Positions 1-63,003 of a DNA stretch of 64,000 bases are shown piece by piece. Numbering within the stretch: position 1 is the first letter of the stretch; the number at the start of each line of letters is the position of its first letter. The position numbers and the translations under genes are program-made. Location of the stretch: NCBI GenBank assembly GCA_964387675.1, contig CAYLWL010000002.1, positions 22,514 to 86,513 of the forward strand. Direction: 5' to 3'. Source of the DNA: an uncultured Candidatus Saccharibacteria bacterium. GTDB taxonomy: Bacteria; Patescibacteriota; Minisyncoccia; UBA6257; 2-01-FULL-56-20. The notes beneath the pieces are model-generated. The model was not told where the DNA came from. It searched no databases and saw nothing but the letters and a program-made list of their open reading frames with translations.

Positions 1-377
1 AGCATGCCCAAACGTTTCATTTCCGCTTGGCCGAATTCACGGTCTTCTTCCAGGCGGTCGGTGTATGAGCTTCCGCCCACGACGGCCTTCCCGGCTTTTC
101 TCAATCTGTCGGCTTCGGCTCCGAAGCCGACATCGTCGAACACGATCACATCCGCCCAGTCGATATGGGATTTCCAGTCGGGTACTTTTTCAAGAACTCC
201 GTCATAGACATCGGCGTCGGCTGTCTCCTTGATGTAGGCCCTTACCTCGTGTCCTTCTTTTTTTATCTGCCACGCCAAGTCGCCGCTCAAACTTTCCCAA
301 CTGACGAATAAAAATTTATAAATTTTCTTCTGAACTCCGTTTCCGTTTTTCCCTTTTTCATTCGGCTGCAGCGCCAT
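1..377 (-). CDS. ATP-grasp-family enzyme, N-terminal portion (PurD-like pre-ATP-grasp region); CDS continues past window start
   Basis: Hand translation of the minus strand from ATG at 377 reads MALQPNEKGK...KFLFVSWESLSGDLAWQIKKEGHEV...VVGGSSYTDRLEEDREFGQAEMKRLGM with no stops to position 1. The GSS...LEEDR.FGK..MK..G stretch resembles the N-domain/ATP-grasp junction of PurD-type ligases. Confidence 0.4.
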   Translation of the reverse strand, partial: MALQPNEKGKNGNGVQKKIYKFLFVSWESLSGDLAWQIKKEGHEVRAYIKETADADVYDGVLEKVPDWKSHIDWADVIVFDDVGFGAEADRLRKAGKAVVGGSSYTDRLEEDREFGQAEMKRLGM

Positions 378-965: not shown

Positions 966-2210
966 ATGCGCGATATCAAATCTCTCAAGTCCCTTATGGA
1001 AAATCAGCTCGGACAGCCGTTCGAGAAGATTTCCGTGATCAATCTGGTGGATTTGCTTGTGGAGTACGCCTACAGCACGAAGGCCTCGGATATCCATATT
1101 CCACCCACGAGGGCTGGCTCGAGAATTCGCTTTCGCATCGACGGCCTGCTTCAGGATATTTTCGACAAGTCCAAAATTTCCAACGATCTGCATCAAGAAA
1201 TCATCGCGAGGATCAAAGTGCTGTCCGGTTTGAGGACGGACGAGCACTTTTTGCCGCAGGACGGAAGATTCAGGGTCAAAATCGAAGAGTTCGGCGATGT
1301 GGACATAAGAGTTTCCATCATGCCGACGTACTACGGCGAGAACGTGATCATGAGGGTCTTGGCGGAGAGCCAGAATTTCAAATTGGAGGACATGGGTTTT
1401 TCCCCAAACGACATTAAAAAAGTGGAAAGCGCGATCAGCAAATCCTTCGGGATGATTCTCGCGAACGGCCCCACGGGTTCGGGAAAAACCACCACGCTCT
1501 ACACGATTTTGCGGCGGCTCAACAGCCCGGAGGTCTCCATCATCACCATCGAGGACCCGATAGAGTATTCTCTTGACGGCACCACGCAGATTCAAATCAA
1601 CGAGCAGGTGGGGCTCACCTTCGCGAACGGTCTGCGATCCATTTTGCGCCAGGACCCGAACATCATCATGGTCGGCGAAATCCGCGACGAAGACACCGCG
1701 GCCATCGCCGTGAACGCTGCCCTTACGGGGCACTTGGTGCTCTCCACGCTCCACACGAACGACGCCGCCACCACATTCCCGCGGCTCCTTGATATGGGCG
1801 TGCCGCCGTTCCTCGTTGCTTCCACCGTGAACATCGCGACCGGCCAGCGGCTCGTGAGAACATTGTGCCAGGACTGCAAAACGAAGAGGGCATTGAAAGA
1901 CGAAGAAGTCAAAAGCTTATCGGAGCTTTTGCCGGAAATAGCGAAGATGGGCGAGAAAAACTTTTTCGCTCCGAATCCGAAAGGGTGCGACGCGTGCGGC
2001 CAGAGCGGATATCGGGGAAGGATCGGCATCCGTGAAGTGATCGAGGTGAACGAAGAAATCAGGCAGCTTGTGATGAATCGCGCCAACGCGACTCAGATCA
2101 AAGAAGCGGCGATTCGGAACGGGATGACGACGATGATAGAAGATGGTTTGCAAAAGGCGGCCAAAGGGCTGACTTCGATCGAAGAGATCATACGGATTAT
2201 ACATGAATAA
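966..2210 (+). CDS. pilB: type IV pilus assembly / type II secretion ATPase, PilB/GspE family (short form)
   Basis: Walker A GPTGSGKTTT, Asp box IIMVGEIRDEDTA, His box LVLSTLHTNDA, C-terminal Cys pairs CQDCK...CDACG. Overlaps pilC start by 8 nt. Confidence 0.85.
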   Translation: MRDIKSLKSLMENQLGQPFEKISVINLVDLLVEYAYSTKASDIHIPPTRAGSRIRFRIDGLLQDIFDKSKISNDLHQEIIARIKVLSGLRTDEHFLPQDGRFRVKIEEFGDVDIRVSIMPTYYGENVIMRVLAESQNFKLEDMGFSPNDIKKVESAISKSFGMILANGPTGSGKTTTLYTILRRLNSPEVSIITIEDPIEYSLDGTTQIQINEQVGLTFANGLRSILRQDPNIIMVGEIRDEDTAAIAVNAALTGHLVLSTLHTNDAATTFPRLLDMGVPPFLVASTVNIATGQRLVRTLCQDCKTKRALKDEEVKSLSELLPEIAKMGEKNFFAPNPKGCDACGQSGYRGRIGIREVIEVNEEIRQLVMNRANATQIKEAAIRNGMTTMIEDGLQKAAKGLTSIEEIIRIIHE

Positions 2211-3285
2211 GCTCAAGCGCTTTCTCATCAGCACGTTCGGGATCGGAGGAGTGCCGATCCAGGAAAAAATCAATTTTGCCCGCCACCTCTCGATCGTCAT
2301 CAAGGCCGGGCTTCCCATCCTCGAGGGCCTGCGTCTCATCAAACGACAGACCGCTTCGCGCGCCGTGGTTTCCGTTATTGATCAGGTGATTGTGGATGTG
2401 GGCAACGGGCAATTCTTGGCAACCAGCTTGTCGAGGTATCCCCATATTTTCGACGACTTTTTCATCAGCATCGTCCGGGTGGGCGAGACGAGCGGAACGC
2501 TGGCGCAGAATTTGGTGTATCTTGCCGATGAACTCAAAAAATCTCATGACTTAAGGAACAAGGTGCGCTCGGCGATGATTTACCCCGTTATCATTATGAT
2601 CGTCACGTCCGGCCTCGTTTCTTTTTTGGTGTTTTTCGCCTTTCCGAAAATTCTGCCCCTGTTCGCGAGTTTGCGGGTTGAATTGCCTGTCACGACCCGC
2701 GTCCTGATCGCTACTACGGCATTTTTCCTCGCGCACGGCGTCTCTGTCGTTGCGGGACTGGTCGCTTTCTTTGTGGCCCTTAGAATTCTACTGATACTTC
2801 GTCCCACGAAAATGATTTCCGACCGCCTACTCATCGCCACGCCCATCTTTTCCAAGATCATCATTGACGTGAACATGGCAAATTTCACGAGGGTGCTTTC
2901 GGTTCTACTGAAGGGCGGGATCAAGATCGTGGAAGCGGTGACCATCACCTCGCAAACGTTCAATAATCTTGTGTATCGCAGGGAGCTTGCCCGGGCCGCG
3001 GAAGGCATTCAAAAAGGGGATCAGTTGGCGAAGTATCTTGCCCATGATAAAAACATTTTCCCGATGTTGCTTTCGGGTCTCATCGAGATCGGAGAAAATA
3101 CGGGGAACTTGGAGGACAACCTGACATATTTGTCCGATTACTATCGCGAAGAGGCGGAACAGAGCATCAATACTTTAACCGCGCTTATCGAGCCCCTGCT
3201 TTTGCTCCTTATGGGAATGGTGGTGGGATTCGTCGCCATTTCAATCATTTCTCCCATCTATCAGATTACCCAAGGAGTGAGATGA
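2203..3285 (+). CDS. pilC: type IV pilus platform protein PilC/GspF family
   Basis: 360-aa polytopic membrane protein with two GspF-like halves (GLPILEGLRLI..., GGIKIVEAVTI...). Directly follows pilB. Confidence 0.8.
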   Translation: MNKLKRFLISTFGIGGVPIQEKINFARHLSIVIKAGLPILEGLRLIKRQTASRAVVSVIDQVIVDVGNGQFLATSLSRYPHIFDDFFISIVRVGETSGTLAQNLVYLADELKKSHDLRNKVRSAMIYPVIIMIVTSGLVSFLVFFAFPKILPLFASLRVELPVTTRVLIATTAFFLAHGVSVVAGLVAFFVALRILLILRPTKMISDRLLIATPIFSKIIIDVNMANFTRVLSVLLKGGIKIVEAVTITSQTFNNLVYRRELARAAEGIQKGDQLAKYLAHDKNIFPMLLSGLIEIGENTGNLEDNLTYLSDYYREEAEQSINTLTALIEPLLLLLMGMVVGFVAISIISPIYQITQGVR

Positions 3286-3743
3286 CGTTCGCTCGAAATA
3301 TCGAAATTTCGAAATATCGAGATGGTTTCACTTTGACGGAGGTTTTGATCGTTGTCGGGATCCTCGCGGTTGTTTTTGCCTTTGCGATCGGCGTCGGCAT
3401 CAATTTCTACGGCGGCCAAGCCGTTGTTTCGGAACGCGACACGCTCGTGAACGTGCTCCGGGCCGCGCGCGGCCGCGCCTTGAACAATTTCGACGAATCG
3501 AGCCACGGCGTTTTTATTGCCGCCGCGCAATACGTCCTTTTCGAGGGCAATTCGTACGCCAGCCGCAACCAGGATTTCGACTCCGTATTTCCGAGAGGGA
3601 AGGGGCTCACGATGAGCGGATTGTCGGAAGTCGTTTTCAACGCGCCGCAAGGCGACGCGAACGCTTCCGGCACCATAACCCTGTCGAACGACCTTGGCAA
3701 TGCTAAAATTAATATCAACAATGAAGGAAGAATTGATTGGTAA
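3282..3743 (+). CDS. prepilin-type N-terminal cleavage/methylation domain protein (pilin/pseudopilin)
   Basis: N-terminus MTFARNIEISKYRDG|FTLTEVLIVVGILAVVFAFAIG is a class III signal with G|FTLxE and a hydrophobic helix. Overlaps pilC stop by 4 nt. Confidence 0.8.
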   Translation: MTFARNIEISKYRDGFTLTEVLIVVGILAVVFAFAIGVGINFYGGQAVVSERDTLVNVLRAARGRALNNFDESSHGVFIAAAQYVLFEGNSYASRNQDFDSVFPRGKGLTMSGLSEVVFNAPQGDANASGTITLSNDLGNAKININNEGRIDW

Positions 3744-3744
3744 A

Positions 3745-3783
3745 TTATTAGAATCTAGAATCTAGAAAATAGAAAGTAGAATT
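3745..3783. repeat. TAGAA-family hairpin arm (left arm flanking four-helix-bundle gene copy 1)
   Basis: ttattagaatctagaatctagaaaatagaaagtagaatt. The inverted partner is at 4147-4188. Confidence 0.7.
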
Positions 3784-4128
3784 ATGAGTAATACAAAATC
3801 TTTTAAAGATTTAATTGTATGGCAGAAAGCGCGGAGTTTGGCGGTTGCGGTATATAAACTTTCTGAACAATTTCCTAACGTAGAGCTATATGGCCTAACA
3901 AGTCAAATGCGTCGCGCGGCCATTTCCATTTCTTCCAACATCGCCGAAAGTTACCACCGTTTTCATAGAAAAGAAAAACAGCAGTTTCTTTCTATCGCTT
4001 TTGGCTCCGGCTCGGAACTAGAAAGCCAAATAGAAATCGCCAAAGTTTTATTTCCAAAGCTGGATTATCGAGAAAGTGAAGAATTATTGTTGGAGGTTAT
4101 GAAAATACTAAATAATTTTCTACAATGA
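3784..4128 (+). CDS. four-helix-bundle protein (23S rRNA intervening-sequence protein / DGR Avd-like family), copy 1
   Basis: 114 aa. WQKARSLAVAVYKLSEQFPNVELYGLTSQMRRAAISISSNIAESYHRF matches the S23-ribosomal/IVS four-helix-bundle family. Flanked by inverted TAGAA repeats. Confidence 0.8.
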   Translation: MSNTKSFKDLIVWQKARSLAVAVYKLSEQFPNVELYGLTSQMRRAAISISSNIAESYHRFHRKEKQQFLSIAFGSGSELESQIEIAKVLFPKLDYRESEELLLEVMKILNNFLQ

Positions 4129-5558
4129 TCAAAATCGAAAAATTAAAAATAGTTCTTCTACTTTCTATTTTCTATTTTCTACCTTCTCGTAAGCGGGGGC
4201 AGTCCACGATTGAGATTTTGATCGCGGTGACGATTCTGACCGCGGTTTTGACGAGCGCCGCCGCGCTCATTTTCGGCAGCCAATCGCTCTCGGTTGATTC
4301 CGCGGAAAGTAATCAGGCATTGCGTCTCGCCGAACAGGGCTTGGAGGGCGTCAAAAATCAGGCCAGATACGACTTCCTCAACATCGTTTCGAGCACCGTG
4401 ACGCAGGGTGAGTTCACGAAAAACATCATTGTCTCGAATGTAGGCGCGAACACGAAGCAAGTGGTAAGCCGCGTTACGTGGAGCACCGATCCGCAGAGAA
4501 CCCAGCAAGTCGAACTCGTGACGCTTGTGACGGATTGGCGCGGCGTGCAGGACACCGGCGGAGACACGGGGAGCGGCGGCGGTGGCGGCGGCGCTTCTGG
4601 CGACTGGTGCAATCCCGCAACCCTCGGCACGATCGATTTGGGATCGGGTGAGTCGGCGACGGGCATCGATGTGATCGCAACAACGACCTATATGACGGCA
4701 GTCGCTTCCTCCCCGAGCAAGAAGGACTTTTTCATCGTTGATGTTTCCAATTCCAGCACTCCTTCCATTATCGGGTCCATAGACACCGGGCCGGGACTCA
4801 ATGCTCTGGACGTGACGGCAAACTACGCTTATGTCGCGAGCGACGACAGCTCCAAGCAATTCCAAGCCATCGACGTCAGCAACAAGACCAGCCCGGTTCT
4901 CGTTGCATCCACCACTCTTACGAGCAATTCCGCCGTTGGACGGAGTATTTTTTACCATAATCAAAAAGTATATATCGGCACGGACGACAATAGTGGAAAC
5001 GAATTCCAGATTATCGACGTGGCCACTCCCGCAACCCCCGTGATTTTGGGAAGAGCTTCTTTGGATGAAGATGTGAATTCCATTTACGTGAGCGGGAACA
5101 AGGCATATCTTGCAACATCCGATACGTCGAAAGACGTGCAGATTTTCGATGTGTCGACTTCATCCGCGCCCGCGCTTCTTGGCACGTATGACATTTCGGG
5201 TGCCGGAGAAACGAAATGGCTGTATGTGGTTGGCACGAAAATGTATGTGGGCAGAGAAACCGGAGGAGATGAACTTTATGTATTGGATATTACGAATGCC
5301 ACTTCGGTGTCGGTGTTGGGCCATAAGGCGATCGGCAAAACGGTGAACGCGATTACAGTGCGCGGCAATTACGCGTTCCTTGCCACCTCCGACCCGAACA
5401 ACGAGCTCAAGATATTCGACGTTTCCAATCTTTCAAATATCACTTCCTGCAGTAACTTCAACTTTCCCAACATCGCGACCGCCGTCGATTTCGACGCCAA
5501 TCTGGTGTACACCGCCGTGCGATCGAACGACGGCCTGCGCATCGTGACATCGCAATAA
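4125..5558 (+). CDS. prepilin-like N-terminus fused to an LVIVD-repeat beta-propeller domain protein
   Basis: N-terminal KRGQSTIEILIAVTILTAVLTSAAALIFG is a pilin-type G/x-T-x-E plus TM. A Gly-rich linker (GGDTGSGGGGGGASGD) is followed by at least six repeats of the pattern xxIxDVSNxSxPxxxG (FIVDVSNSSTPSIIGS, QAIDVSNKTSPVLVAS, QIIDVATPATPVILGR, QIFDVSTSSAPALLGT, YVLDITNATSVSVLGH, KIFDVSNLSNITSCS). These are typical of LVIVD repeats. True start codon uncertain. Confidence 0.65.
   Translation: MIKIEKLKIVLLLSIFYFLPSRKRGQSTIEILIAVTILTAVLTSAAALIFGSQSLSVDSAESNQALRLAEQGLEGVKNQARYDFLNIVSSTVTQGEFTKNIIVSNVGANTKQVVSRVTWSTDPQRTQQVELVTLVTDWRGVQDTGGDTGSGGGGGGASGDWCNPATLGTIDLGSGESATGIDVIATTTYMTAVASSPSKKDFFIVDVSNSSTPSIIGSIDTGPGLNALDVTANYAYVASDDSSKQFQAIDVSNKTSPVLVASTTLTSNSAVGRSIFYHNQKVYIGTDDNSGNEFQIIDVATPATPVILGRASLDEDVNSIYVSGNKAYLATSDTSKDVQIFDVSTSSAPALLGTYDISGAGETKWLYVVGTKMYVGRETGGDELYVLDITNATSVSVLGHKAIGKTVNAITVRGNYAFLATSDPNNELKIFDVSNLSNITSCSNFNFPNIATAVDFDANLVYTAVRSNDGLRIVTSQ
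4147..4188. repeat. TAGAA-family hairpin arm (right arm); also encodes N-terminus of the following pilin-like ORF
   Basis: tagttcttctactttctattttctattttctaccttctcg is the reverse-complement partner of 3745-3783. It translates in frame as VLLLSIFYFLPSR preceding KRG|QSTIE. Confidence 0.7.
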
Positions 5559-5560
5559 AA

Positions 5561-5600
5561 TTAGAATTTAGTAGCTAGTATCTAGAAACTAGAATGCGAG
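5561..5600. repeat. TAGAA-family hairpin arm
   Basis: ttagaatttagtagctagtatctagaaactagaatgcgag. Partner at 5635-5668. Confidence 0.65.
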
Positions 5601-5624
5601 AAATAACCAACGCAAACGCAATTT

Positions 5625-6155
5625 ATGAATAAAATACTAGATTCTAGATTCCAGATTCTAGATTCTCGCAGAGGGTTTACCTTGATGGAGACCTTGATTT
5701 ACATCGCTCTTTTTTCCGTCATTACGAGCTATGTCCTTGGCGTGTTCTATCAACTCCTCGGCAGCCGCAACCAAAATCGCGACAGGACGGAAGTTGACGC
5801 GGAAGCGAACTTTCTCATGCAGAAACTGCGGTGGGCAATGAGCGGCGTCCAAACCGTCAACCAGCCGGCGACAGGCGCCACTTCGACGACGCTATCGGTC
5901 ACAAAGTACAATTTCGCGCAGAACCCGATCGTATTCGACCTTGATTCCAGTACCCTCCGAATGGCAAAGGGTGGGGGAGCGGCGGTAATTTTAAACAATA
6001 GCCGCGTGGGAGTGGGCCAGCTGACATTCGAGCGCCTGGCTCCGGTGAGTAACGCTCCGGAAGGAGTTACCATAACATTGTCGGTATCGTCCCTTGATGT
6101 TGAGCGGCCGGTCGTCGCTTCCACCACTATCGTGGACACCATTTATTTAAGGTAA
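5625..6155 (+). CDS. prepilin-type N-terminal cleavage/methylation domain protein (pseudopilin)
   Basis: MNKILDSRFQILDSRRG|FTLMETLIYIALFSVITSYVLG is a canonical class III signal peptide. Confidence 0.8.
   Translation: MNKILDSRFQILDSRRGFTLMETLIYIALFSVITSYVLGVFYQLLGSRNQNRDRTEVDAEANFLMQKLRWAMSGVQTVNQPATGATSTTLSVTKYNFAQNPIVFDLDSSTLRMAKGGGAAVILNNSRVGVGQLTFERLAPVSNAPEGVTITLSVSSLDVERPVVASTTIVDTIYLR
5635..5668. repeat. TAGAA-family hairpin arm that encodes the pilin leader peptide
   Basis: tactagattctagattccagattctagattctcg translates as ILDSRFQILDSR immediately before RG|FTLMETLI. Confidence 0.65.
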
Positions 6156-6207
6156 TAAGCTAGCTTTTAGGTGTTAGCTGTTAGGTTTTAGAAAACAAAT
6201 AAATAAA

Positions 6208-6648
6208 ATGAGAGAAAAGTTCTATCATATCGGCAACCTACTAAAAGCTATAAGCTATAAGCTAAAAGCCCGGGTTGGCTACATCGGCATCGTGTCGGCG
6301 CTTATCATATCGGCCGTTGTGGTTCTGATTATGGTCGCGGTGGGGCAGATTTCGTTCTTGAACCGCATCAACATTTCCGACACCCACTTAAAAAAGAAAA
6401 GCCGGGCGCTCGCGGAGGGGTGCGTCGACACAGCGCTCTTGAAGCTCGCGTCGAACGCTTCCTACGCCGGCAACGAAACCATCACTGTTGCGAGCGATAC
6501 ATGCAAAATCGTTTCCGTGGTTTCGTCGAGTACGGGAAAGATCATTTCTGCCCAGGGCAAGTTCCTCGGCGCGGTGACGGATGTCAAGGCGACCGTTGAC
6601 ACCAACACCTTCTCGATCGTGGGCTGGGAAGAGGTGAGGAGTTTTTGA
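6208..6648 (+). CDS. hypothetical membrane protein in pilus operon (possible minor pilin/PilX-like)
   Basis: 146 aa with one N-terminal TM helix (IGIVSALIISAVVVLIMVAVG). No recognisable motif. Confidence 0.4.
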   Translation: MREKFYHIGNLLKAISYKLKARVGYIGIVSALIISAVVVLIMVAVGQISFLNRINISDTHLKKKSRALAEGCVDTALLKLASNASYAGNETITVASDTCKIVSVVSSSTGKIISAQGKFLGAVTDVKATVDTNTFSIVGWEEVRSF

Positions 6649-6691
6649 TTAGAAAGTAGAATTTAGAAAATAGAAAGTAGAATCTGGAAAA
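6649..6691. repeat. TAGAA-family hairpin arm
   Basis: ttagaaagtagaatttagaaaatagaaagtagaatctggaaaa. Partner at 6710-6747. Confidence 0.65.
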
Positions 6692-6693
6692 CT

Positions 6694-7191
6694 ATGAAAA
6701 ATTTAAAAACAACTTCTATTTTCTATTTTCTAGATTCTAGATTCTCGAATAAGGGTTTCACTTTGATAGAGGTCGTCATATCGGTGGCAATCATTACGCT
6801 CCTTACGGTTGCTGCCATTGTTATTCTCGATCCCGCTCGGCAGTTTGCCAAATCGAGAAACACACAGCGCTGGTCGGATGTGAATGTGATTTTGAATGCG
6901 GTTGGGCAAAACACCGTTGACAACCGCGGAACTTTTTCGTGCAGTTCCGGCGGGATTCCCACGACTACGACGAGGATGGCGTCCAGCAGTCCGAACTACA
7001 ATATCGCGCCGTGCCTTGTAGCGACCTATTTAAGCGCCTTGCCGTTCGATCCGGCAACGAGCGGCGCGAAGTGGACGAGCGTAACCGATTACGACACCGC
7101 TTATAACATCCTGCGAAACGCCACAACCGGCCGCGTGACGATTTCCGCTCCGGCGGCCGAACTTGGGGAGAGCGTTACGGTCACGAGGTAG
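6694..7191 (+). CDS. prepilin-type N-terminal cleavage/methylation domain protein (pilin)
   Basis: MKNLKTTSIFYFLDSRFSNKG|FTLIEVVISVAIITLLTVAAIVIL. Confidence 0.8.
   Translation: MKNLKTTSIFYFLDSRFSNKGFTLIEVVISVAIITLLTVAAIVILDPARQFAKSRNTQRWSDVNVILNAVGQNTVDNRGTFSCSSGGIPTTTTRMASSSPNYNIAPCLVATYLSALPFDPATSGAKWTSVTDYDTAYNILRNATTGRVTISAPAAELGESVTVTR
6710..6747. repeat. TAGAA-family hairpin arm encoding pilin leader
   Basis: aacttctattttctattttctagattctagattctcg translates as TSIFYFLDSRFS before NKG|FTLIEV. Confidence 0.65.
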
Positions 7192-10560: not shown

Positions 10561-11871
10561 ATGAGGTTGCGGGTTATTTTGGGAATAGTTGCTCTCGGCG
10601 CCATATTTTTTTTGGTTTTTGTGCCGCGCGTGGTTATTATCGCGCCCGTTGAACTTGCGAAAGTCGCCGTGAAATCGGCCGCTTCCGTTCTCCCCGGCAT
10701 TCCGGAAGCGATCGTTCCAGAGTCGAAACAAGGCCAGTCGAAAATATCGGGAACATCGGATTTGCCCAATCAGCCGCCGCTCGCAAACCCGCCGGATGTC
10801 GCAAAGGGGATCTATGTGACCGGTTGGTCGGCGGGTTCGCAGTCGAGAATAAGCTCGCTCATCGCGCTTGTGAAGCGCACGGAAGTAAACGCGATGGTGG
10901 TGGATATCAAGGATTATTCGGGCAATGTTTCGTACAGAACGGGGCTTCCGGAAGTTGTCGCGGCGGGCGCGGAAGGAGAAATCCGCGTCGCTCAGCCGAA
11001 TGCCCTCATCAAACGGCTTCACGACGAGCATATCTACATCATCGGGCGCATCACCGTGTTCCAGGATCCCATTTTGGCGAAGGCGCATCCCGAGTGGGCG
11101 CTTCAAAACAAAGTGACCGGCAAAACATGGACAGATAGCAAAAAACTTTCCTGGATGGATGCGGCCGCCAAGCCCGTTTGGGATTATACTATTGCTATCG
11201 CCAAGGATGCTTTCGCGCGCGGCTTCGACGAAATTCAATTCGATTATGTGCGGTTCGCCTCCGACGGCGCGCTCGGAGAGATCGATTATCCGTTTTGGGA
11301 CGCGAAAACGCCGCGGCACAAAGTCATCGCCGAGTTTTTCAAGTATCTGCGGGACAGCTTGCCGGGCAAGAAGATTTCCGCCGATCTTTTCGGTCTTGCG
11401 GCAGTTGATACCTGGGATGACCTGGGAATAGGCCAGGTTATTGAAGACGCCTACAAAAACTTCGATTACGTTTCGCCGATGGTGTATCCTTCGCACTTCG
11501 CCGCGGGAACGCTTGGCTATAAAAGCCCCGCCCAGCATCCGTACGAAATCGTAAAGTATTCGATGGAGCAGGCGCTCGCGAGGTTAGCAAAGAGCAAAGA
11601 GCAAAGAGCAAATAGTTCTTCTACTATTATTATCACAACATCATCCGATCAATTCGCTATCGGCCCTTTGCCCTTCGCTGCGAAGTTACGCCCGTGGCTT
11701 CAGGACTTCAATCTCGGAGCAACCTATAACGCGGAGATGGTGCGCAAGCAGATCCAGGCGACCTATGACGTTTTCCTGAACGGCACTTCGAGCGATCCTT
11801 CCAGATTCGGCGGCTGGATACTCTGGGATCCCGCGAATACGTACACGGAAGGAGCGTTGGAGCGAGGATGA
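10561..11871 (+). CDS. secreted/membrane-anchored hypothetical protein, possibly GH-like TIM-barrel (DUF4015/GHL10-type) family
   Basis: N-terminal TM/signal (ILGIVALGAIFFLVF). Motif block GIYVTGWSAGS...VNAMVVDIKDYSGNVSY recalls the COG1306 putative glycoside hydrolase family. Contains the in-frame repeat insertion LAKSKEQRANSSSTIIITTSS (11581-11640). Confidence 0.4.
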   Translation: MRLRVILGIVALGAIFFLVFVPRVVIIAPVELAKVAVKSAASVLPGIPEAIVPESKQGQSKISGTSDLPNQPPLANPPDVAKGIYVTGWSAGSQSRISSLIALVKRTEVNAMVVDIKDYSGNVSYRTGLPEVVAAGAEGEIRVAQPNALIKRLHDEHIYIIGRITVFQDPILAKAHPEWALQNKVTGKTWTDSKKLSWMDAAAKPVWDYTIAIAKDAFARGFDEIQFDYVRFASDGALGEIDYPFWDAKTPRHKVIAEFFKYLRDSLPGKKISADLFGLAAVDTWDDLGIGQVIEDAYKNFDYVSPMVYPSHFAAGTLGYKSPAQHPYEIVKYSMEQALARLAKSKEQRANSSSTIIITTSSDQFAIGPLPFAAKLRPWLQDFNLGATYNAEMVRKQIQATYDVFLNGTSSDPSRFGGWILWDPANTYTEGALERG

Positions 11872-11875: not shown

Positions 11876-12619
11876 TTGAAACACATGACACAAACATACG
11901 AACTAAAGCTCGAAAAATTCAGCGGACCGCTTGAAAAACTCCTCGAATTGATCGAAGAGAAAAAGCTTCAGATTGCCGAAATCAGCTTGGCTCAAGTTAC
12001 GGATGATTTTTTGAAGTATTTTAAGGCGCTTACCGATCTCGAGCGGGATTTGCATCTTGTGGCGGATTTTATTTCTATCGCAAGCAAGCTGATCCTTATA
12101 AAGTCAAAGTTCTTACTGCCGGATTTGACGCTTACGCCGGATGAAGAGCAGGGCATCAAAGACCTTGAGAAGCGCCTCAAAATGTATCAAGAACTCAAGC
12201 CGGTGTTGAAGATTCTCGAGAAGCTTTGGCAGGGAGCGGAACGGGAATTCGGCCGGGAATACTTTTTGAGCAAGGGCTACGTATCGGGCGGAGATGCCCA
12301 TTTTGTTTTTTACCCGGGCAAGGGGCTGTATACGCAAGCTCTCTTCGAAGCGGCAAAAAAGCTTTTCGACGCGCTCCGCGTGGAGGAGCTCGAAACGAAA
12401 ACAATCAAAGAAAAGATCATCAGTATTGAAGAAAAGATTGGGGAGGTGATCAAAAGGATTGAGAACGAATTAGAGATGAACTTTTCCAATCTGTCGAGCA
12501 AAAAATCCCGATCGGAAATCGTAGTCATCTTCCTCGCTATTTTGCACCTGGCTCGCGAGCAGCTCATATATCTTGAGCAATCGGAGCATTTCTCTGATAT
12601 AATCGTTAGAAAGAAATGA
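11876..12619 (+). CDS. scpA: segregation and condensation protein A
   Basis: LEKFSGPLEKLLELIEEKKLQIAEISLAQVTDDFLKYF matches the ScpA N-terminal signature. Followed by scpB. Confidence 0.8.
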   Translation: MKHMTQTYELKLEKFSGPLEKLLELIEEKKLQIAEISLAQVTDDFLKYFKALTDLERDLHLVADFISIASKLILIKSKFLLPDLTLTPDEEQGIKDLEKRLKMYQELKPVLKILEKLWQGAEREFGREYFLSKGYVSGGDAHFVFYPGKGLYTQALFEAAKKLFDALRVEELETKTIKEKIISIEEKIGEVIKRIENELEMNFSNLSSKKSRSEIVVIFLAILHLAREQLIYLEQSEHFSDIIVRKK

Positions 12620-12650
12620 GATATGAGATATGAGAGATGAGGTCATAAAC
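12606..12650. repeat. ATGAGA-family hairpin arm (left arm flanking four-helix-bundle gene copy 2)
   Basis: agaaagaaatgagatatgagatatgagagatgaggtc. Provides the ATG of the 4HB ORF. Confidence 0.7.
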
Positions 12651-13004
12651 GAAGAAAAGTTTATTTTCGAGGATTTAAGGGTGTATCATAGAGCGTTGCA
12701 GCTTGCCGTTGAGCTTACTAAAATTGCAACAAAACTCCCCCACAGTTACTCGAGGATACGAGACCAGTTAATCGGGGCAGTTATTTCTATCCCATTAAAT
12801 CTTGCCGAAGGATCAGGTAGGTTGGGTGAAAAGGATAAAAAGAACTTCTATAAATTTAGTCGCTCTTCGGCATTTGAACTGATTCCAATTATTGATATAA
12901 TTTACCAATTAGAGCTTATCAACAAAGAGAAAAGAAATAATATTCGCCGCGAAGTTGTAGAACTTTCGCGTATCATTTCTGCTTTAATAAAAAAATCGTC
13001 CTAA
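12630..13004 (+). CDS. four-helix-bundle protein (23S rRNA IVS protein / Avd-like), copy 2
   Basis: KFIFEDLRVYHRALQLAVELTKIATKLPHSYSRIRDQLIGAVISIPLNLAEGSGR. Paralog of the 28266-28637 copy (about 60-65% identity by eye). Confidence 0.8.
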   Translation: MRDEVINEEKFIFEDLRVYHRALQLAVELTKIATKLPHSYSRIRDQLIGAVISIPLNLAEGSGRLGEKDKKNFYKFSRSSAFELIPIIDIIYQLELINKEKRNNIRREVVELSRIISALIKKSS

Positions 13005-13040
13005 TTTCTCATTTCTCATGTCTAATTTCTCAATAGAAAA
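13000..13040. repeat. ATGAGA-family hairpin arm (right arm); overlaps scpB start
   Basis: cctaatttctcatttctcatgtctaatttctcaatag. ATG TCT AAT TTC TCA = MSNFS of ScpB. Confidence 0.7.
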
Positions 13041-15227: not shown

Positions 15228-15235
15228 AGAAAAAA

Positions 15236-15332
15236 GAAATGAGATATGAGAAACGAGGAACGAAAAGGAGTTCCCGATTGCACGAAACGTTCGTAGTTCC
15301 CAATCTCTCATTTCTAATTTCTCATCTCTAGA
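15236..15332. repeat. ATGAGA-family ORF-less hairpin element
   Basis: gaaatgagatatgagaaacgaggaacg ... caatctctcatttctaatttctcatctctag inverted arms around a 38-nt loop. Confidence 0.75.
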
Positions 15333-18512: not shown

Positions 18513-18621
18513 TTTACACCCCTCTATATTACTTTTTGCGCTGCGTGTATTCTATGTGTTTGAAAATAATTTGTCAAACGTCGCGCGGAGATGGTATTAT
18601 GTTTGAGAAAATGCCCGGGAG

Positions 18622-18685
18622 TCCTGCCTGCCGGCAGGCAAGGCCTGTCTGCCGGCAGGCAGGCCTGCCTACCGGCAGACAGGGA
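18622..18685. repeat. GC-rich palindromic repeat (GCCTGCCGGCAGGCAGG units)
   Basis: cctgcctgccggcaggcaaggcctgtctgccggcaggcaggcctgcctaccggcagacaggg. Same family at 54726-54768. Confidence 0.75.
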
Positions 18686-25874: not shown

Positions 25875-26228
25875 ATGAACATGTTGAGCAAGGACGGCAT
25901 TTTGAAATTCAGGATCGTTTACTCAATGTTTCTTTTTGATTTCGCTTTGGTTCTCGGCGGTGTGCTGTGGGCTTATTTCTCTCTACGAAACGCGAGCGGG
26001 CCGGTGGTCATCCACTTTAACGACATTGCCGGCATCAACCGTATCGGAAGTTTCTGGGACGTGGTTGGAATCGGCGTAACGGGCCTTGCCATAGTCGTTC
26101 TTAACTTATTTATAGCTCTCGAGTTCGAAAAAAGAGACCGATTTTGGGGGAAGCTGGCGGCCGCTTTCACGGTCGTTGTGAGCATCTTGATTTTTATAGC
26201 GTTAGCGGCTATCATATCTGTAAACTAA
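25875..26228 (+). CDS. hypothetical small membrane protein
   Basis: 117 aa with 3 predicted TM helices. Confidence 0.4.
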   Translation: MNMLSKDGILKFRIVYSMFLFDFALVLGGVLWAYFSLRNASGPVVIHFNDIAGINRIGSFWDVVGIGVTGLAIVVLNLFIALEFEKRDRFWGKLAAAFTVVVSILIFIALAAIISVN

Positions 26229-27817: not shown

Positions 27818-28234
27818 TTGCCATTAGCCGCAACTATGGACCAACCCTCTCAATCATTTGAACATGAAGCCCTCGAGGCCGATATTAAAGCCCTTGCGCA
27901 GGAAGTCGAGAAACATCGCGAACTTCCGGAGAATAAAGGCGTGAGCGGGCAGGAGTTGTTAAAGAAAGCAATCCGTGCCTTGCCGCCGGTTTCAACCGCG
28001 ACAGAGCCCGTCTCAAAACCCTCACGGCCGAGTCCGCTCCCGCAGTACGCGCAAAGCGCCTCGCCGGAAGTCCGTCTTGAAATCGAGTACTTGATTGACT
28101 TGGCTTTCCACGCCGGTATCGGTAAGGCCTCGGCGGAAGCGAAGAAATCCCCCGATTTCGTGCAAGACGCTTTTCATGACGCCTTGGCCGGAAAACTGTA
28201 CCCGATGTTTCAGGAGAGGGGAATACTTAAATAG
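27818..28234 (+). CDS. hypothetical protein
   Basis: 138-aa ORF, acidic helical. Preceded by a ctttgctctttgcc repeat. Confidence 0.35.
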   Translation: MPLAATMDQPSQSFEHEALEADIKALAQEVEKHRELPENKGVSGQELLKKAIRALPPVSTATEPVSKPSRPSPLPQYAQSASPEVRLEIEYLIDLAFHAGIGKASAEAKKSPDFVQDAFHDALAGKLYPMFQERGILK

Positions 28235-28265
28235 AGATTAGAGATGAGAAATGAGATATTAGGAT
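28222..28265. repeat. ATGAGA-family hairpin arm (left arm flanking four-helix-bundle copy 3)
   Basis: tagagattagagatgagaaatgagatattaggatatgagc. Confidence 0.7.
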
Positions 28266-28637
28266 ATGAGCAATGAAAAATTTATTTTTGAAGATTTAAG
28301 GGTTTATCACGGGGCATTAAAACTTTCAGTGGAGCTTACTAAGCTGGCTACGAAATTTCCACACGACTATTCGAGAATACAAAATCAATTAATTGGAGCA
28401 GCTATTTCTGTTCCCTTGAATCTCGCCGAGGGTTCTGGAAGGGAAAGCGATAAGGATAAAAAGAATTTTTATAGAATTAGTAGATCATCTATTTTTGAAC
28501 TCGTGCCTCTTATTGATATAATTTACGAACTAGGACTCATAGGAAGCGACAAGCGAGATGAAATTCGTCACGAAGTTGCGGAACTTTCGCGAATTGTTTC
28601 CACCTTAATGAAAAACAAAGTTTCTCAAAAGTCCTAA
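28266..28637 (+). CDS. four-helix-bundle protein (23S rRNA IVS protein / Avd-like), copy 3
   Basis: MSNEKFIFEDLRVYHGALKLSVELTKLATKFPHDYSRIQNQLIGAAISVPLNLAEGSGR. Confidence 0.8.
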   Translation: MSNEKFIFEDLRVYHGALKLSVELTKLATKFPHDYSRIQNQLIGAAISVPLNLAEGSGRESDKDKKNFYRISRSSIFELVPLIDIIYELGLIGSDKRDEIRHEVAELSRIVSTLMKNKVSQKS

Positions 28638-28662
28638 TTTCTCATTTCTAATATCTCATCTC
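28625..28662. repeat. ATGAGA-family hairpin arm (right arm)
   Basis: cctaatttctcatttctaatatctcatctctaaat. The same right arm recurs at 59630-59665 and 36765-36780. Confidence 0.7.
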
Positions 28663-28667
28663 TAAAT

Positions 28668-31040
28668 ATGTTTATTTACTTCCTTATGGGTTTTATCGTA
28701 AGCGCCGTTTTGGGCGTGAGTATTTATTTTTTGGCACGGCACATCGTTCGAGGCAAGCTTTTCGCGTCTTTGGGAATGACGCTCTTGCTCATCAAGATTC
28801 CCCGCGAAACCTCCGCCCAAAACGCGCCGGAAAAAGATTTCAAAACGGAGATTAATCGATTCGAGCAGCTTTTGGGCGGGCTCGCTTCTTTGAAGAAGCC
28901 GGTTGTGTTTGAGGCGGCGGTGCCCCACGTCGGCGAGGAAATCCATTTTTATCTCGCGGTGCCCAAAAAAATGATGGAGGTAGCCATAAAACAAGTCCAG
29001 GGTTTGTGGAACGGAGCGAGCGTCGACATCGCCCCTGATGACTTCAATATCTTTAACGCCAATGGCGCGACCTCGGCCGCCTATATTATGCAGAAAGAAA
29101 ACTATGCCTTGCCGATTCGGAGTTACTTGGAACTTGGGCTCGATTCGTTCGCGTCCGTTATCGGCGGCTTTTCGAAGGTTGCCGAAATTGGCGAAGGCGC
29201 GGCGCTGCAAATTGTTCTGCGGCCCGGCCCGAAAGACGCCAAGAAAAAAATCCACGGTTTCATCCAATCCCTCAAAAAGGGCGAGCCGCTCAAAAAAGTG
29301 TTCGGCCACGAATTTCCGGTGAGTTTCTCGGAGATCGGCCAGGCCCTGAATCCCAAGAAAGAGGAAGAGAAGAAAGAGAAGATCGTCGACGAAGAGGCGG
29401 TGAAGGCGCTCGAAATGAAAATAACAAAGCCCTTATTTGAGGTGAACGTGAGGGTGGTATGCTCGGCGGGTTCCAAATTCCAGTCGGATGATATTTTGGA
29501 CGGTATCACCGCGGGTTTCAATCAATTCGGCAGTCCGAGGAGGAATGAGTTCAGGGTGGTAAAACCGAGAAACCCAAACACGGTGGCTCGCCAGTTCATA
29601 TTCCGGAATTTTGAGTCCTCGCAAAGAATGCTACTCTCTGCCGAGGAAATCGCGAGCTTCTATCATTTTCCGACGGCGCTCACCGAAACGCCTCGAATCA
29701 AATGGCTCAAGTCCAAAGAAGCCCCGCCGCCCGCAAACTTGCCCGCGAGCGGCATCCAGATAGGAGAGAGTTTATTCCGCGGCCAGACGAAGCCCGTATA
29801 TATAACACACGAGGATAGGCGGCGGCATGTGTATACCATCGGTCAGACGGGTACGGGAAAATCCACGCTTTTGGGCAATATGATTATCGAAGACATCAAG
29901 CAGGGGAGGGGCGTGGCAATCATCGATCCTCACGGCGATCTGGTGGGCAACGCCTTGGGTTTTATTCCGAAAGACCGGATTGACGACTTGATTTATTTCG
30001 ACCCCGCGGATCTTGAAAGGCCGCTTGGACTCAACATGCTGGATTATAATTTTGATCGTCCCGAAGAGAAGACATTCATCGTGAACGAGATGCAGAGTAT
30101 CTTTAACAAACTGTTCCCACCGGAGACGATGGGCCCGATGTTCGAGCAGTATATGAGGAACGCGCTTTTGCTTTTAATGGAAGACATGCCCAACGAACCG
30201 GCGACGCTCATTGAGGTCCCCAGGGTTTTTACGGACGCAGAGTACCGCGCGCGCAAACTCGAGCGGATTCAGAATCCCGTGGTCATCGATTTTTGGGAAA
30301 AAGAAGCGGTGAAGGCGGGAGGCGAAGCGTCTCTTGCCAATATGACGCCGTATATCACCTCTAAATTCAACAACTTCATTTCGAACGACTATATGCGGCC
30401 GATTATCGGCCAGGCGAAGTCGGCGTTCAATTTCAGAAAGGTGATGGATGAAGGAAAGATTTTACTCATCAATCTTTCCAAGGGAAGGATTGGAGACATC
30501 AACGCCGGACTTCTCGGCATGGTGTTCACCGGAAAGATTTTGATGGCCGCTTTGTCGAGAGTGGACATAGCCGAGGTTGAGAGGCGGCGTGACTTTAATC
30601 TCTACATAGACGAATTCCAAAACTTCACGACGGATTCCATCGCCACGATTCTCTCTGAGGCAAGAAAATACAAATTGAATCTGACGATGGCGCACCAGTT
30701 CATTGCCCAGCTCACGGAAAAAATCCGCGACGCGGTTTTCGGCAACGTCGGTTCGCAGATTGTGTTTCGCGTCGGCGTGCAGGATGCGGAGTTTTTGGTG
30801 AAGCAGTTCGAGCCGGTGTTTAGTCAGAACGATTTATTGAATATCGACAACTTGAACGCCTACGCGAAGATTTTAATCAACGGCGAAACGTCAAAACCCT
30901 TTAACATTAAAATTCTTACCACTTCCTGGGGAGCGGGCGACAAAGACATGGCCCAAAAGCTAAGGGAATACTCAAGGATGAAATACGGCATGGATCGGCA
31001 GGGGATCGAGGCGGAGATTTATAGGAGGTTGCGAGAGTAA
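28668..31040 (+). CDS. membrane-anchored P-loop ATPase of the VirD4/TraD/TraG type IV coupling-protein-like family
   Basis: N-terminal TM (FIYFLMGFIVSAVLGVSIYFL). HVYTIGQTGTGKSTLLGNMI (Walker A), then AIIDPHGDLVGNALGFIPKDRIDDLIYFDPAD, which parallels the TrwB/VirD4 block (vIvDPnGD...ilnP.d), and LYIDEFQNF (Walker B). Confidence 0.55.
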   Translation: MFIYFLMGFIVSAVLGVSIYFLARHIVRGKLFASLGMTLLLIKIPRETSAQNAPEKDFKTEINRFEQLLGGLASLKKPVVFEAAVPHVGEEIHFYLAVPKKMMEVAIKQVQGLWNGASVDIAPDDFNIFNANGATSAAYIMQKENYALPIRSYLELGLDSFASVIGGFSKVAEIGEGAALQIVLRPGPKDAKKKIHGFIQSLKKGEPLKKVFGHEFPVSFSEIGQALNPKKEEEKKEKIVDEEAVKALEMKITKPLFEVNVRVVCSAGSKFQSDDILDGITAGFNQFGSPRRNEFRVVKPRNPNTVARQFIFRNFESSQRMLLSAEEIASFYHFPTALTETPRIKWLKSKEAPPPANLPASGIQIGESLFRGQTKPVYITHEDRRRHVYTIGQTGTGKSTLLGNMIIEDIKQGRGVAIIDPHGDLVGNALGFIPKDRIDDLIYFDPADLERPLGLNMLDYNFDRPEEKTFIVNEMQSIFNKLFPPETMGPMFEQYMRNALLLLMEDMPNEPATLIEVPRVFTDAEYRARKLERIQNPVVIDFWEKEAVKAGGEASLANMTPYITSKFNNFISNDYMRPIIGQAKSAFNFRKVMDEGKILLINLSKGRIGDINAGLLGMVFTGKILMAALSRVDIAEVERRRDFNLYIDEFQNFTTDSIATILSEARKYKLNLTMAHQFIAQLTEKIRDAVFGNVGSQIVFRVGVQDAEFLVKQFEPVFSQNDLLNIDNLNAYAKILINGETSKPFNIKILTTSWGAGDKDMAQKLREYSRMKYGMDRQGIEAEIYRRLRE

Positions 31041-37305: not shown

Positions 37306-37308
37306 AAT

Positions 37309-43555: not shown

Positions 43556-43572
43556 AATCTTTTTCTGATTCA

Positions 43573-44983: not shown

Positions 44984-45022
44984 TTAGAATCCAGAATCTA
45001 GTGGCTAGAATCTAGAATTTTA
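44984..45022. repeat. TAGAA-family repeat
   Basis: cattagaatccagaatctagtggctagaatctagaattt. Confidence 0.65.
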
Positions 45023-54768: not shown

Positions 54769-54828
54769 AGGCAGGGCGCTTGTTGACCCCGCACCTTCGG
54801 AGGCGTATTATTTTAGGAATCGATGCAA

Positions 54829-61646: not shown

Positions 61647-62945
61647 ATGAACTTTTTTACAAAAACTTTGCGGTGGATGGTCAAGCGCTTGGCCCAGCTT
61701 GCGGTCTGGCGCTATCGGCCGGGAATCATCGGCATCACCGGAAGCGTGGGGAAGACCTCCACAAAGCTCGCCGTGCAGGCGGTGCTCGGCGGAGAGCGGA
61801 GAGTCAGGGCTTCGGCCGGGAACCTGAACAGCGACCTGGGCCTCCCGCTCACTATTTTGGGTGACTGGAGCGAAAAAGAGCTTGCGCTCGTGAGTCGCGA
61901 TCAACCGCCGCACACGGCGAGGATCAGGAAGCTGTTCTTTTGGGCAAAAGTGATACTCTCTTCTTTCTGGAGAGTTCTCTTTGCCGCGAGATCGAGCTAC
62001 CCTGATATTCTGGTGTTGGAATACGGCGCGGATAGACCGGGGGATTTGAAGTACTTGCTCGGCATCGCGCGGCCCAATATAAGCGTCATTACCGCGATAG
62101 GCGACATACCGGTTCATGTGGAGTTTTTCGCCGGACCGGACGACGTGGCTCGCGAGAAGGCGCGACTTATCGAATATCTGCCGTCGGCGGGCTTCGCGGT
62201 CTTAAACCGCGACGATGATTCGGTGATGAACCTGAAAGACAGGACGCGGGCGCACGTGATCACGTTCGGTTTCGCCTCCGATGCCGACGTGCGCATTTCA
62301 CGGTTTGAGAATCGCACAGAAGGAGACGTGCCGGCGGGAATTTCTTTTAAGCTGGAATACGGAGGGAGTTTGGTGCCGGTGCGGCTTGACGGTGTCTTCG
62401 GCAAGGCCCAAAGTTACGCGTCCGCCGCGGCCGCGGCGATCGGTTTGGTGTTTGGGTTAAATCTGGTGAAAATTTCGGAGGCATTGAAGAAATACGTGCC
62501 GGCGGATTCGAGAATGAAACTTGTGCCCGGCATCAAGCACACCCATCTCATTGATGATTCGTACAACGCGAGCCCCTTATCGATGCACGCGGCGCTCGAT
62601 ACGCTCAAAAGTTTGCCTGCCAAGCGCAAAATGGCCGTGTTGGGAGATATGCTTGAGATAGGAAAGTACGCGATTGAAGCCCATGAACGCGCGGGCCGCC
62701 TGGCCGGAAAATTCTTGGATGTTCTGATTACGGTCGGGCCCCGGGCGAAGTTTATCGCGGAGGAAGCGCGCAAATCCGGCATGAGGAGAAACAAAATCTA
62801 TTCGTTCGACACCGCGGATGCCGCCAAACGAGAAGTGCAAAACTTGATGAAAAAAGGCGATCTTGTTTTAATCAAGGGGTCGCACGCGATGGAACTCAAT
62901 AAGGTGGTGGAGGAAGTAAAACAGTATCTAGTATCTAGTATCTAG
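61647..62945 (+). CDS. murF: UDP-N-acetylmuramoyl-tripeptide--D-alanyl-D-alanine ligase
   Basis: IIGITGSVGKTSTK, NLNSDLGLPLTIL (MurF signature). murE is not present between ftsI and murF. Confidence 0.8.
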   Translation: MNFFTKTLRWMVKRLAQLAVWRYRPGIIGITGSVGKTSTKLAVQAVLGGERRVRASAGNLNSDLGLPLTILGDWSEKELALVSRDQPPHTARIRKLFFWAKVILSSFWRVLFAARSSYPDILVLEYGADRPGDLKYLLGIARPNISVITAIGDIPVHVEFFAGPDDVAREKARLIEYLPSAGFAVLNRDDDSVMNLKDRTRAHVITFGFASDADVRISRFENRTEGDVPAGISFKLEYGGSLVPVRLDGVFGKAQSYASAAAAAIGLVFGLNLVKISEALKKYVPADSRMKLVPGIKHTHLIDDSYNASPLSMHAALDTLKSLPAKRKMAVLGDMLEIGKYAIEAHERAGRLAGKFLDVLITVGPRAKFIAEEARKSGMRRNKIYSFDTADAAKREVQNLMKKGDLVLIKGSHAMELNKVVEEVKQYLVSSI

Positions 62946-63003
62946 TATCTAGAAACTAGAATCTAGAATTTCGGTCATTTTAACTACTAAATTCTAGATT
63001 CTG
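62924..63003. repeat. TAGAA/CTAGTAT-family repeat cluster; first units encode MurF C-terminus
   Basis: cagtatctagtatctagtatctagtatctagaaactagaatctagaatttcgg...aaattctagattctg. Translates to ...KQYLVSSI*. Confidence 0.7.

Follow-up and report, generated by a model that had tools for sequence, protein, structure and literature searches.

The stretch of DNA analysed here, called the window below, is a 64,000-nt segment of contig CAYLWL010000002.1 from an uncultured Candidatus Saccharibacteria bacterium. A type IV pilus operon extends from position 966 to 7191 of the window: genes for a PilB-like ATPase and a PilC-like platform protein are followed by a prepilin gene, a gene for a four-helix-bundle (4HB) protein, the gene of an LVIVD-repeat pilin-like protein of 477 amino acids and three further pilin-like genes. 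The element in question is the 4HB gene together with the inverted repeats that enclose it. This AT-rich stem-loop of 448 nt (positions 3745-4192, plus strand) sits between two pilin genes, and will be referred to as the cassette.

Structure of the cassette and its protein

From left to right the cassette consists of a left arm of about five heptamers, each with a stop codon, the ATG and the body of the 4HB gene, a TGA sharing bases with the ATG of the following gene, and finally the right arm, complementary to the left one. A repeat search delimited the arms as 3745-3781 and 4156-4192 (37 nt each, 84% complementary, 374 nt spacing). Local alignment of the upstream flank with the reverse-complemented downstream flank gave a score of 22, whereas 200 shuffles had a mean of 7.9 and a maximum of 13 (z=12.2). 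The flanking strings quoted in an earlier note on this DNA were found in their places, and the inverted repeat does enclose the 4HB gene. The same note proposed folding the transcript. In the predicted fold of a 471-nt RNA the arms were paired both in the minimum free energy (MFE) structure and in the centroid structure, with z=-4.3 and none of 100 shuffled sequences as stable. The repeats had been described as a TAGAA family of inverted repeats, which held, but the true unit is the heptamer TAGAAnn, and its period had been missed. Tandem Repeats Finder (TRF) reported period-7 arms with approximately 4-5 copies each.

The left arm starts 2 nt 3′ of the TAA stop codon of the upstream pilin gene, and the ATG of the 4HB gene lies in heptamer register directly after it. 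The right arm has no stop codon in any of the three frames. The ATG of the LVIVD pilin gene (position 4125) overlaps the TGA of the 4HB gene as ATGA, and is the only in-frame start before the G/QSTIE cleavage motif (the slash marks the cut), so the right arm lies inside the sole possible frame. It is read as residues 11-23, approximately, of a 25-residue leader ending at G/QSTIE, and the claim that this arm supplies the N-terminal residues of the LVIVD pilin was therefore correct. The leaders of related proteins are quite different, and the mature N-terminus that follows them is the same. Two copies of the repeat that lack an internal open reading frame (ORF) also bear on translation. In their right arms (5637-5668 and 6714-6747) in-frame TAGs are swapped for CAG or TCG; in the hairpin at 5562-5668 the sole heptamer whose TAG would be in frame reads CAG. 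Because the sole in-frame TAG heptamer became CAG or TCG in both copies, we conclude that the right arms are translated.

The cassette is a compositional island. Its GC content is 34%, compared with 50% for the window; the 4HB ORF has 37% GC and a GC content at third codon positions (GC3) of 0.33, and the adjoining pilin genes have about 53% GC and a GC3 of 0.66. Rfam models at gathering thresholds had no match at the cassette, and in the whole window they matched tRNAs only, no rRNA. Both flanks are pilin genes, so the cassette does not have the location of the intervening sequences (IVS) of 23S rRNA, which lie in rRNA helix 9, 25 or 45. An intrinsic terminator was also considered. The promoter and terminator scan found no enrichment, and the cassette is not an intrinsic terminator because the right arm is not followed by a T-run.

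The product of the ORF at 3784-4128 matched PF05635 with E=1.4e-32 and 112.5 bits (cut-off 33.8), and TIGR02436, 'four helix bundle protein', with 104.5 bits (cut-off 24). Its nearest solved relative is XCC0516 (2GSC, 5 chains; E=3.5e-18), and the S23p protein of X. campestris is described as a homopentameric toroid (PMC4990558, citing Lin 2006). The family motif has been given as GxxRxxxSxxxNxxE (PMC3936711); RxxxSxxxNxxE is present at residues 44-55 (R-AAI-S-ISS-N-IA-E), with S48, N52 and E55 invariant in the alignment. Among related cassettes dN/dS, the ratio of nonsynonymous to synonymous divergence, was about 0.07 (dN approximately 0.1-0.2, dS saturated at >2), which indicates that the protein is under strong purifying selection. 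The sequence of the TAGAA arms, beyond mere complementarity, was kept while synonymous sites were randomised.

One conceivable role for such a protein is that of an Avd accessory protein in a diversity-generating retroelement targeting the pilins. PF05635 is related to bAvd, the folds are homologous four-helix bundles, a solved family member is homopentameric, and there was a weak match to PF22296 (E=0.004). The bAvd model, however, scored 18 bits against a cut-off of 40, the genes called in the 10 kb to each side included no reverse transcriptase, and the repeat searches returned no template/variable repeat pair. We consider this explanation effectively refuted.

The window encodes three 4HB paralogs (3784-4128, 12630-13004 and 28266-28637). 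The latter two share 72% identity with each other and 28-33% with the 3784-4128 protein, and each is enclosed by an inverted repeat of its own. None of the three was matched by the anti-phage defence models of PADLOC.

Related pilus operons and 4HB loci in other genomes

A comparison with the pilus operons of related genomes, as the earlier note had proposed, was informative. The gene order PilB-PilC-pilin-LVIVD pilin-three pilins, together with an oppositely oriented dnaX, recurs in four relatives, and the LVIVD proteins of these have 73, 57, 54 and 49% identity to that of the window. In the place of the 448-nt cassette the gap between the first pilin gene and the LVIVD pilin gene is 28, 28, 2 and 22 nt in these relatives, and no 4HB gene was found anywhere in their pilus loci. 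Since the four syntenic relatives lack the gene and the composition of the cassette is foreign, the cassette is a lineage-specific, compositionally foreign insertion.

The junction was not naive before the insertion. A heptamer array is present in the leader-coding start of the LVIVD gene in all four relatives, with a different heptamer in each lineage, and the two closer relatives carry an additional matching array just 5′ of the LVIVD ATG. The description of the cassette as an insert is essentially right, with the supported correction that ORF-less heptamer arrays or hairpins already occupy this junction in relatives. A further relative, the only one returned by a metagenome scan (L013, 80% identical), whose sequence covers the downstream pilin junctions and ends before the cassette junction, has near-identical TTAGGTG/AACCTAA hairpins at all three downstream pilin junctions. 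The same three junctions of the window carry TAGAA, TAGCT/TTAGGTG and TAGAA repeats. Both arms have therefore been replaced together over short evolutionary distances. Further contigs with an identical LVIVD protein were 100% identical over the region, and are uninformative on the insertion.

Homologues of the 3784-4128 protein number in the thousands. The top 120 were 79-88% identical, and came from different classes of Patescibacteria. Four contexts in this identity range were inspected: they were unrelated operons, in which the gene was co-directional with its neighbours and had TAGAA arms. The 5′ side read ...TAGAAAATAGAAAGTAGAATT-ATG or a close variant, with (A/T)ATG straight after the last heptamer, and the 3′ side was of the TTCTACTTTCTATTTTCTA type. 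Two of these contexts also had the stop codon overlapping the next ATG as ATGA, as in the window.

Eighty further 4HB loci came from a scan in which each species was represented by one genome; they belong to Patescibacteria, Saccharibacteria, Gammaproteobacteria, Bacteroidota, Planctomycetota, Acidobacteriota, Omnitrophota, Atribacterota, Desulfobacterota and others. Of the scan loci with at least 72% identity, six of seven had TAGAA arms; the seventh, L024, had TAGTATC. All 11 inspected loci encoding 72-88% identical proteins had TAG-core arms (ten TAGAA, one TAGTATC). Protein and arms are conserved as one unit at unrelated operon junctions in Patescibacteria.

The wider sample had the same architecture. 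Inverted repeats flanked the 4HB gene at z of at least 5 in 50 of the 79 scan loci with enough flanking sequence. At least four tandem heptamers were present within 100 nt upstream in 72% of 86 loci, compared with 5.4% of 498 control segments; the modal upstream copy number was 5, and TAG was by far the commonest trinucleotide in left arms. The neighbouring gene was co-directional upstream in 76 and downstream in 73 of 84 loci, with gaps of about 40 nt. The upstream ORF terminated inside the array in 48 of 62 loci (via TAG in 33), and the GC content of the 4HB ORF was below that of its flanks in 98% of 83 loci. Stops in all three frames occurred in 32 of 50 left arms, but also in 15 of 50 right arms, which makes this a tendency, not a rule. 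The survey suggests that an operon, not rRNA, is the normal setting of this gene family. Four PF05635 relatives were found in a scan of viral contigs (IMG/VR; L098-L101); at least three were flanked by inverted heptamer arrays, among them TAGTCTG x4 and its exact complement in L099. Phages may carry cassettes between hosts.

AT-rich simple sequence is prone to slippage, and the arms might be attributed to chance low complexity or to plain replication slippage. The statistics refute this: the complementarity of the arms has z=12, TAGAA occurs 28 times in the window where 0.06 occurrences are expected, and the architecture recurs in 86 loci of many phyla.

Proteins at least 70% identical shared 2.6 of the four variable heptamer positions, compared with a baseline of 1.0 (Mantel p=0.0005). 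The link between heptamer and protein was clear only for the TAGAA and TAGCG classes, and faded below about 55% identity. That each class of heptamer should have a protein clade to itself was only partly borne out.

Heptamer arrays and hairpins in the window

Approximately 35 period-7 arrays were detected in the 64 kb, belonging to the families TAGAAnn, GAGAnAT, GCAAAGn, GTGTCAG/TGACACn, AGTATCn and TAGCTnT. They take two forms: inverted pairs, which form hairpins with or without an ORF, and single arrays that end at a start codon. TRF and pattern searches served better than blastn self-comparison, which overlooked most AT-rich hairpins, or a sliding MFE scan, which was swamped by GC-rich sequence. 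The GAGAnnT (ATGAGA) pattern occurred 25 times against 0.41 expected. As previously proposed, the TAGAA and ATGAGA families were each found both with a 4HB ORF and as ORF-less hairpins (five TAGAA and six GAGAnAT sites). The listing of ORF-less TAGAA hairpins stood at 5561-5668, at 6649-6747 and, with adjusted ends, at about 62936-63003, but not at 44984-45022, which is mainly a direct TAGAATC array with a weak hairpin. The ORF-less hairpin at 6649-6747 aligned in its 3′ part (6691-6760) with the 3′ end of the 4HB cassette. In the second cassette the TAG of scpA lies inside the left arm and the ATG of scpB inside the right arm. The features are collected in Table 1.

Table 1. Coordinates of the pilus operon cassette, its neighbours and related repeats in the window
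Feature	Position	Strand	Remarks
Upstream prepilin (N_methyl motif)	3282..3743	+	In relatives adjoins the LVIVD pilin directly
Left arm	3745..3783	+	TTAT + TAGAATC TAGAATC TAGAAAA TAGAAAG TAGAATT
4HB gene (PF05635 23S_rRNA_IVP / TIGR02436), 114 amino acids	3784..4128	+	Profile match
LVIVD prepilin, leader-coding segment	4125..4199	+	MIKIEKLKIVLLLSIFYFLPSRKRG/QSTIE
Right arm	4156..4192	+	TTCTACT TTCTATT TTCTATT TTCTACC TTCTCG, complement of the left arm
LVIVD-repeat pilin-like protein, mature part	4200..5558	+	Orthologues served as synteny anchors
ORF-less TAGAA hairpin	5562..5668	+	Next prepilin ATG (5625) in loop; right arm encodes its leader
ORF-less hairpin, third heptamer family (TAGCTnT / TTAGGTG)	6157..6270	+	Same family at three L013 junctions
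ORF-less TAGAA hairpin	6649..6747	+	32-nt arms, 88% complementary, z=-6.5; ATG 6694 in loop
Second cassette	12608..13035	+	GAGAnAT / ATGAGA arms and 4HB paralog, between scpA and scpB
ORF-less GAGAnAT hairpin	15228..15330	+	Further copies 26228-26308, 59568-59667
Third cassette	28225..28671	+	TAGAGAT/GAGAAAT arms, 40 nt, 83% complementary, and 4HB paralog
Direct TAGAATC array	44985..45018		Adjoins start codon of minus-strand gene; weak hairpin only
TAGAA/AGTATCT array and hairpin	62936..63003	+	At 3′ end of gene 61647-62945

Heptamer hairpins were also observed inside genes. The RNase P RNA gene (36690-37310, plus strand) matched RF00010 with no more than 34 bits (E=7e-9; gathering score 100), and is apparently split by two GC-clamped heptamer hairpins, 36706-36835 (GAGAnAT) and 36841-36970 (GGGCAAA). 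This would amount to the expansion of a second structural RNA in the manner of an IVS. The topoisomerase I gene (49999-52464, minus strand) has two in-frame GCAAAGA heptamer hairpins (arrays 51990-52090 and 50240-50320), at amino acids 125-159, between the Toprim and Topoisom_bac domains, and at amino acids 715-742. They encode KEQRAKSK, and so does the array 11586-11612 (plus strand) inside a DUF4015 gene; stop codons are absent from the GCAAAGA family. At the mraZ/mraW junction (hairpin 58588-58662) the TAG stop codon of mraZ is the first left-arm heptamer, and the ATG of mraW is in the last right-arm heptamer. The mismatches of this hairpin are A.C on the sense strand, and the antisense RNA is far more stable (-42 vs -22 kcal/mol).

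Repeats of other kinds were observed as well. The leader-coding region of the first prepilin gene contains a period-8 repeat at 3293-3320 (TCGAAATA x3.5), which is not a heptamer array. A GC-rich 20-nt palindromic tandem repeat, CCTGCCTGCCGGCAGGCAGG, is present at 18617-18683 and 54737-54775, and its family is unrelated to the heptamers. Inverted repeats sharing CCCATCTCAAAA occur at 43572-43632 and 55809-56082; the latter copy has 26-nt arms, 96% complementary and 222 nt apart, just 5′ of tRNA-Ile (56106). The gene of tRNA-Glu (63045-63122) lies within a 22-nt inverted repeat, TACAAAAATTTGTTGCCCCTAT / ATGGGGGCACCAAATTTTTGTA (63031-63132), which lengthens the acceptor stem by about 13 bp. Upstream of the pilus operon, purD (GARS; 3881-6253 of L001, partly window 1-377, minus strand) encodes 790 amino acids with a faint LAGLIDADG_3 match, and this suggests an intein or a homing-endonuclease insertion.

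The position of the arrays raises the question of phase variation. In the Neisseria opa leader, CTCTT repeats shift the reading frame. Gain or loss of heptamers between the ATG and the mature pilin could likewise shift the frame, and the 4HB gene would then be incidental. The unit length is not a multiple of three, tracts occupy the leader-coding part of each of the five pilin-like genes, in the window as in every relative, and strains of Coxiella differ in heptamer number (PMC4990558). Nevertheless, we find contingency repeats improbable. Five independently assembled contigs from different runs were 100% identical over the region; the same arrays stand before scpB, mraW and other housekeeping genes, and within topA; and phase variation leaves the complementary second arm and the conserved linked gene unexplained.

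Interpretation and comparison with known systems

On balance we think it likely that the cassette is an IVS-type palindromic element residing in an mRNA, mobile now or formerly, and tolerated because the right arm codes for a prepilin leader that can be cleaved off. The claim of mobility draws on distribution, composition and presence or absence in relatives, which together point to it. The cassette would be co-transcribed with the pilus operon. Since seven leaves a remainder of one on division by three, three or more TAG-bearing heptamers place a stop in every frame, and the left arm is expected to end upstream translation in any frame. A Shine-Dalgarno-like motif precedes only about 10 of the 63 predicted genes of the window. 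Because the cassette ATG follows the stops at once and the window is nearly devoid of Shine-Dalgarno motifs, termination-reinitiation is the likely route of translation for the 4HB gene, and then, via ATGA, for the LVIVD pilin; the cassette would hand the ATG to the downstream gene through this overlap. The right arm would be read as prepilin leader, and then removed by prepilin peptidase. A leader that the peptidase removes would be a tolerant place for arm sequence. As a separate observation, a TATAAT-like box stands 5-10 nt ahead of the ATG in many first genes of the window, which points to mRNAs with no leader or a very short one.

Paired in the transcript, the arms would make a stem of roughly 30 bp for RNase III to cleave, by analogy with the 23S IVS of Coxiella; a search of the 64-kb window itself found no RNase III signature motif. 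A cut would split the operon mRNA, and part the body of the LVIVD pilin from its start codon. Competition between pairing of the arms and occupancy by ribosomes could set how strongly the distal pilins are expressed, and the cassette could reduce that expression or make it conditional. The 4HB protein is predicted to bind, as a pentamer, about five tandem heptamers. Such binding is suggested by the modal copy number, the conservation of the arm sequence and the sharing of heptamer type at 70% identity or more.

Several observations weigh against this interpretation. The arm mismatches comprise 41 G.U against 42 A.C and 126 of transversion type, i.e. the sense strand has no wobble bias, and several ORF-less hairpins are more stable as antisense. 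Because there is no excess of G.U and the antisense folds are stronger, selection for a helix in the sense RNA is not demonstrated. The arms could be terminal repeats acting at the DNA level, and the data fit RNA helix and DNA repeats alike. Cleavage by RNase III would strip the downstream gene of its start codon, which is awkward for a harmless insertion. Heptamer copy number spans 3 to 9 and is not fixed at 5, and heptamer type tracks protein relatedness only among close relatives (Mantel r 0.27). Turning to mobility, no transposase or recombinase was identified in the loci examined, and no pair of filled and empty sites close enough to give the exact ends was found. A target-site duplication was not identified, and is not definable because the relatives hold other hairpins at the junction. 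With dS saturated between cassettes, there is no evidence of recent transfer.

A different function, possible but in our judgement unlikely, is that of a domesticated post-transcriptional regulon. The arrays would be operators in mRNA (or DNA), and each 4HB paralog would bind its own type of heptamer. The TAGAA-type protein would then control the pilin-start hairpins at 5562-5668 and 6649-6747, and the insertion would wire the operon in, and not be selfish. This explanation agrees with the heptamer type shared by the cassette and the two ORF-less hairpins of the same operon, with the strong purifying selection on the protein, and with arms conserved while synonymous sites are saturated. The modal copy number of 5 matches a pentameric solved homologue (PMC4990558), the near-absence of Shine-Dalgarno motifs means that internal genes need another route of initiation, and a binding protein for start-adjacent heptamer repeats has been proposed (MacGregor 2015; PMC4679880). 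On the other hand, at least five other heptamer types of the window have no cognate 4HB gene nearby, hairpins also lie inside ORFs and in RNase P RNA, where regulation is unlikely, and the relatives retain pilin-start hairpins without any 4HB gene in the locus. The sharing of heptamer type among related proteins, and with it the covariation of the two, could just as well stem from the cassette's common descent.

The insertion of an IVS-type element, which we favour, has wider implications. The function of S23p/four-helix-bundle proteins and the origin of rRNA IVS are questions standing since 1990-93, and the literature searched treats the S23p ORF as an rRNA curiosity. The rRNA copies would instead be a special case of a general cassette whose arms are stop-codon-bearing heptamer arrays. 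In operons the cassette supplies the stop codon of the preceding gene, and often the start codon of the following one. The 4HB protein is a concrete candidate for the long-sought heptamer-repeat binding protein, and the cassette is a possible route to rewired operon expression in bacteria without Shine-Dalgarno motifs, such as bacteria of the candidate phyla radiation (CPR). We tentatively propose that PF05635 pentamers might be sequence-specific binders of arrays of about five tandem heptamers, and that protein and arms, with their ORF-less derivatives, might make up one widespread, hitherto unrecognised class of cassette found in any transcribed sequence. If so, this class would lodge in rRNA, RNase P RNA, operon junctions, ORF linkers and phage genomes, and one mechanism would unite the 23S rRNA IVS, the start-codon heptamer repeats of Cyanobacteria, Beggiatoaceae and Bacteroidetes, and the '23S_rRNA_IVP' genes of cas operons. 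For annotation there is a practical warning: the N-termini of many genes in such genomes are read from repeat arms.

The ORF-less copies invite comparison with small palindromic elements. Neisseria Correia elements are hairpins in mRNAs that RNase III cuts, and Rickettsia palindromic elements are inserted in frame. Like these, the ORF-less copies of the window are multi-copy, have terminal inverted repeats, form long transcript hairpins, and are found at operon junctions, inside ORFs (topA) and in structural RNA genes (RNase P RNA). Unlike them, the window copies have arms of tandem heptamers that vary by family, and a full-length version with a non-transposase 4HB gene. Neither a TA duplication nor a cognate transposase was seen for the window family.

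The cyanobacterial short tandemly repeated repetitive (STRR) sequences are kindred heptamer direct repeats. Intergenic heptamer repeats abutting start codons have been described in Beggiatoaceae, Cyanobacteria and Bacteroidetes, with TAACTGA as the unit, with stop codons in forward orientation, and in regions poor in Shine-Dalgarno motifs (PMC4679880). In that paper, MacGregor (2015) postulated a binding protein, possibly mobile, for the start-adjacent repeats, and drew no link to PF05635. The arrays of the window resemble these repeats in their period of 7, in copy numbers of 2-6, in ending within a few nt of the start codon, in their forward-orientation stop codons and in a setting with few Shine-Dalgarno motifs. 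They differ in that they occur as inverted pairs, have a TAG or GAG core, and are linked to a candidate protein.

The closest known system is the 23S rRNA IVS. In Coxiella this element has a predicted length of 444 nt and a mapped length of 428 nt, a 28-bp stem made by pairing of its terminal inverted repeats, a loop with an S23p ORF, three tandem GACAGAT units before the ATG, a heptamer number that differs between strains, and cleavage by RNase III at mid-stem (PMC4990558). 23S_rRNA_IVP ORFs also occur in rRNA insertions of CPR bacteria (PMC11270868), and genes of this name have been found between cas genes (PMC3936711, PMC10910872). Beyond the description of the Coxiella element we found no literature linking the PF05635/TIGR02436 family to flanking heptamer inverted repeats, and none tying together rRNA IVS, cas-operon 23S_rRNA_IVP genes and start-codon heptamer repeats.

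The cassette shares with the IVS of Coxiella burnetii and Leptospira (PMC4990558) its size (about 430-450 nt, 448 nt here), a stem of approximately 28-37 bp, the PF05635 ORF in the loop, tandem heptamers directly before the ATG, and AT-richness; the IVS has long been suspected to be a mobile element. It differs in lying between genes of type IV pilus proteins, not in 23S helix 25 or 45, and in that its right arm belongs to the translated part of the following gene. The S23p protein of Coxiella has been described as decaying, whereas the 4HB protein of the window is under strong purifying selection (dN/dS of about 0.07). The gene family of the cassette and its type of element, the IVS, are both known already; the setting is one not described before.

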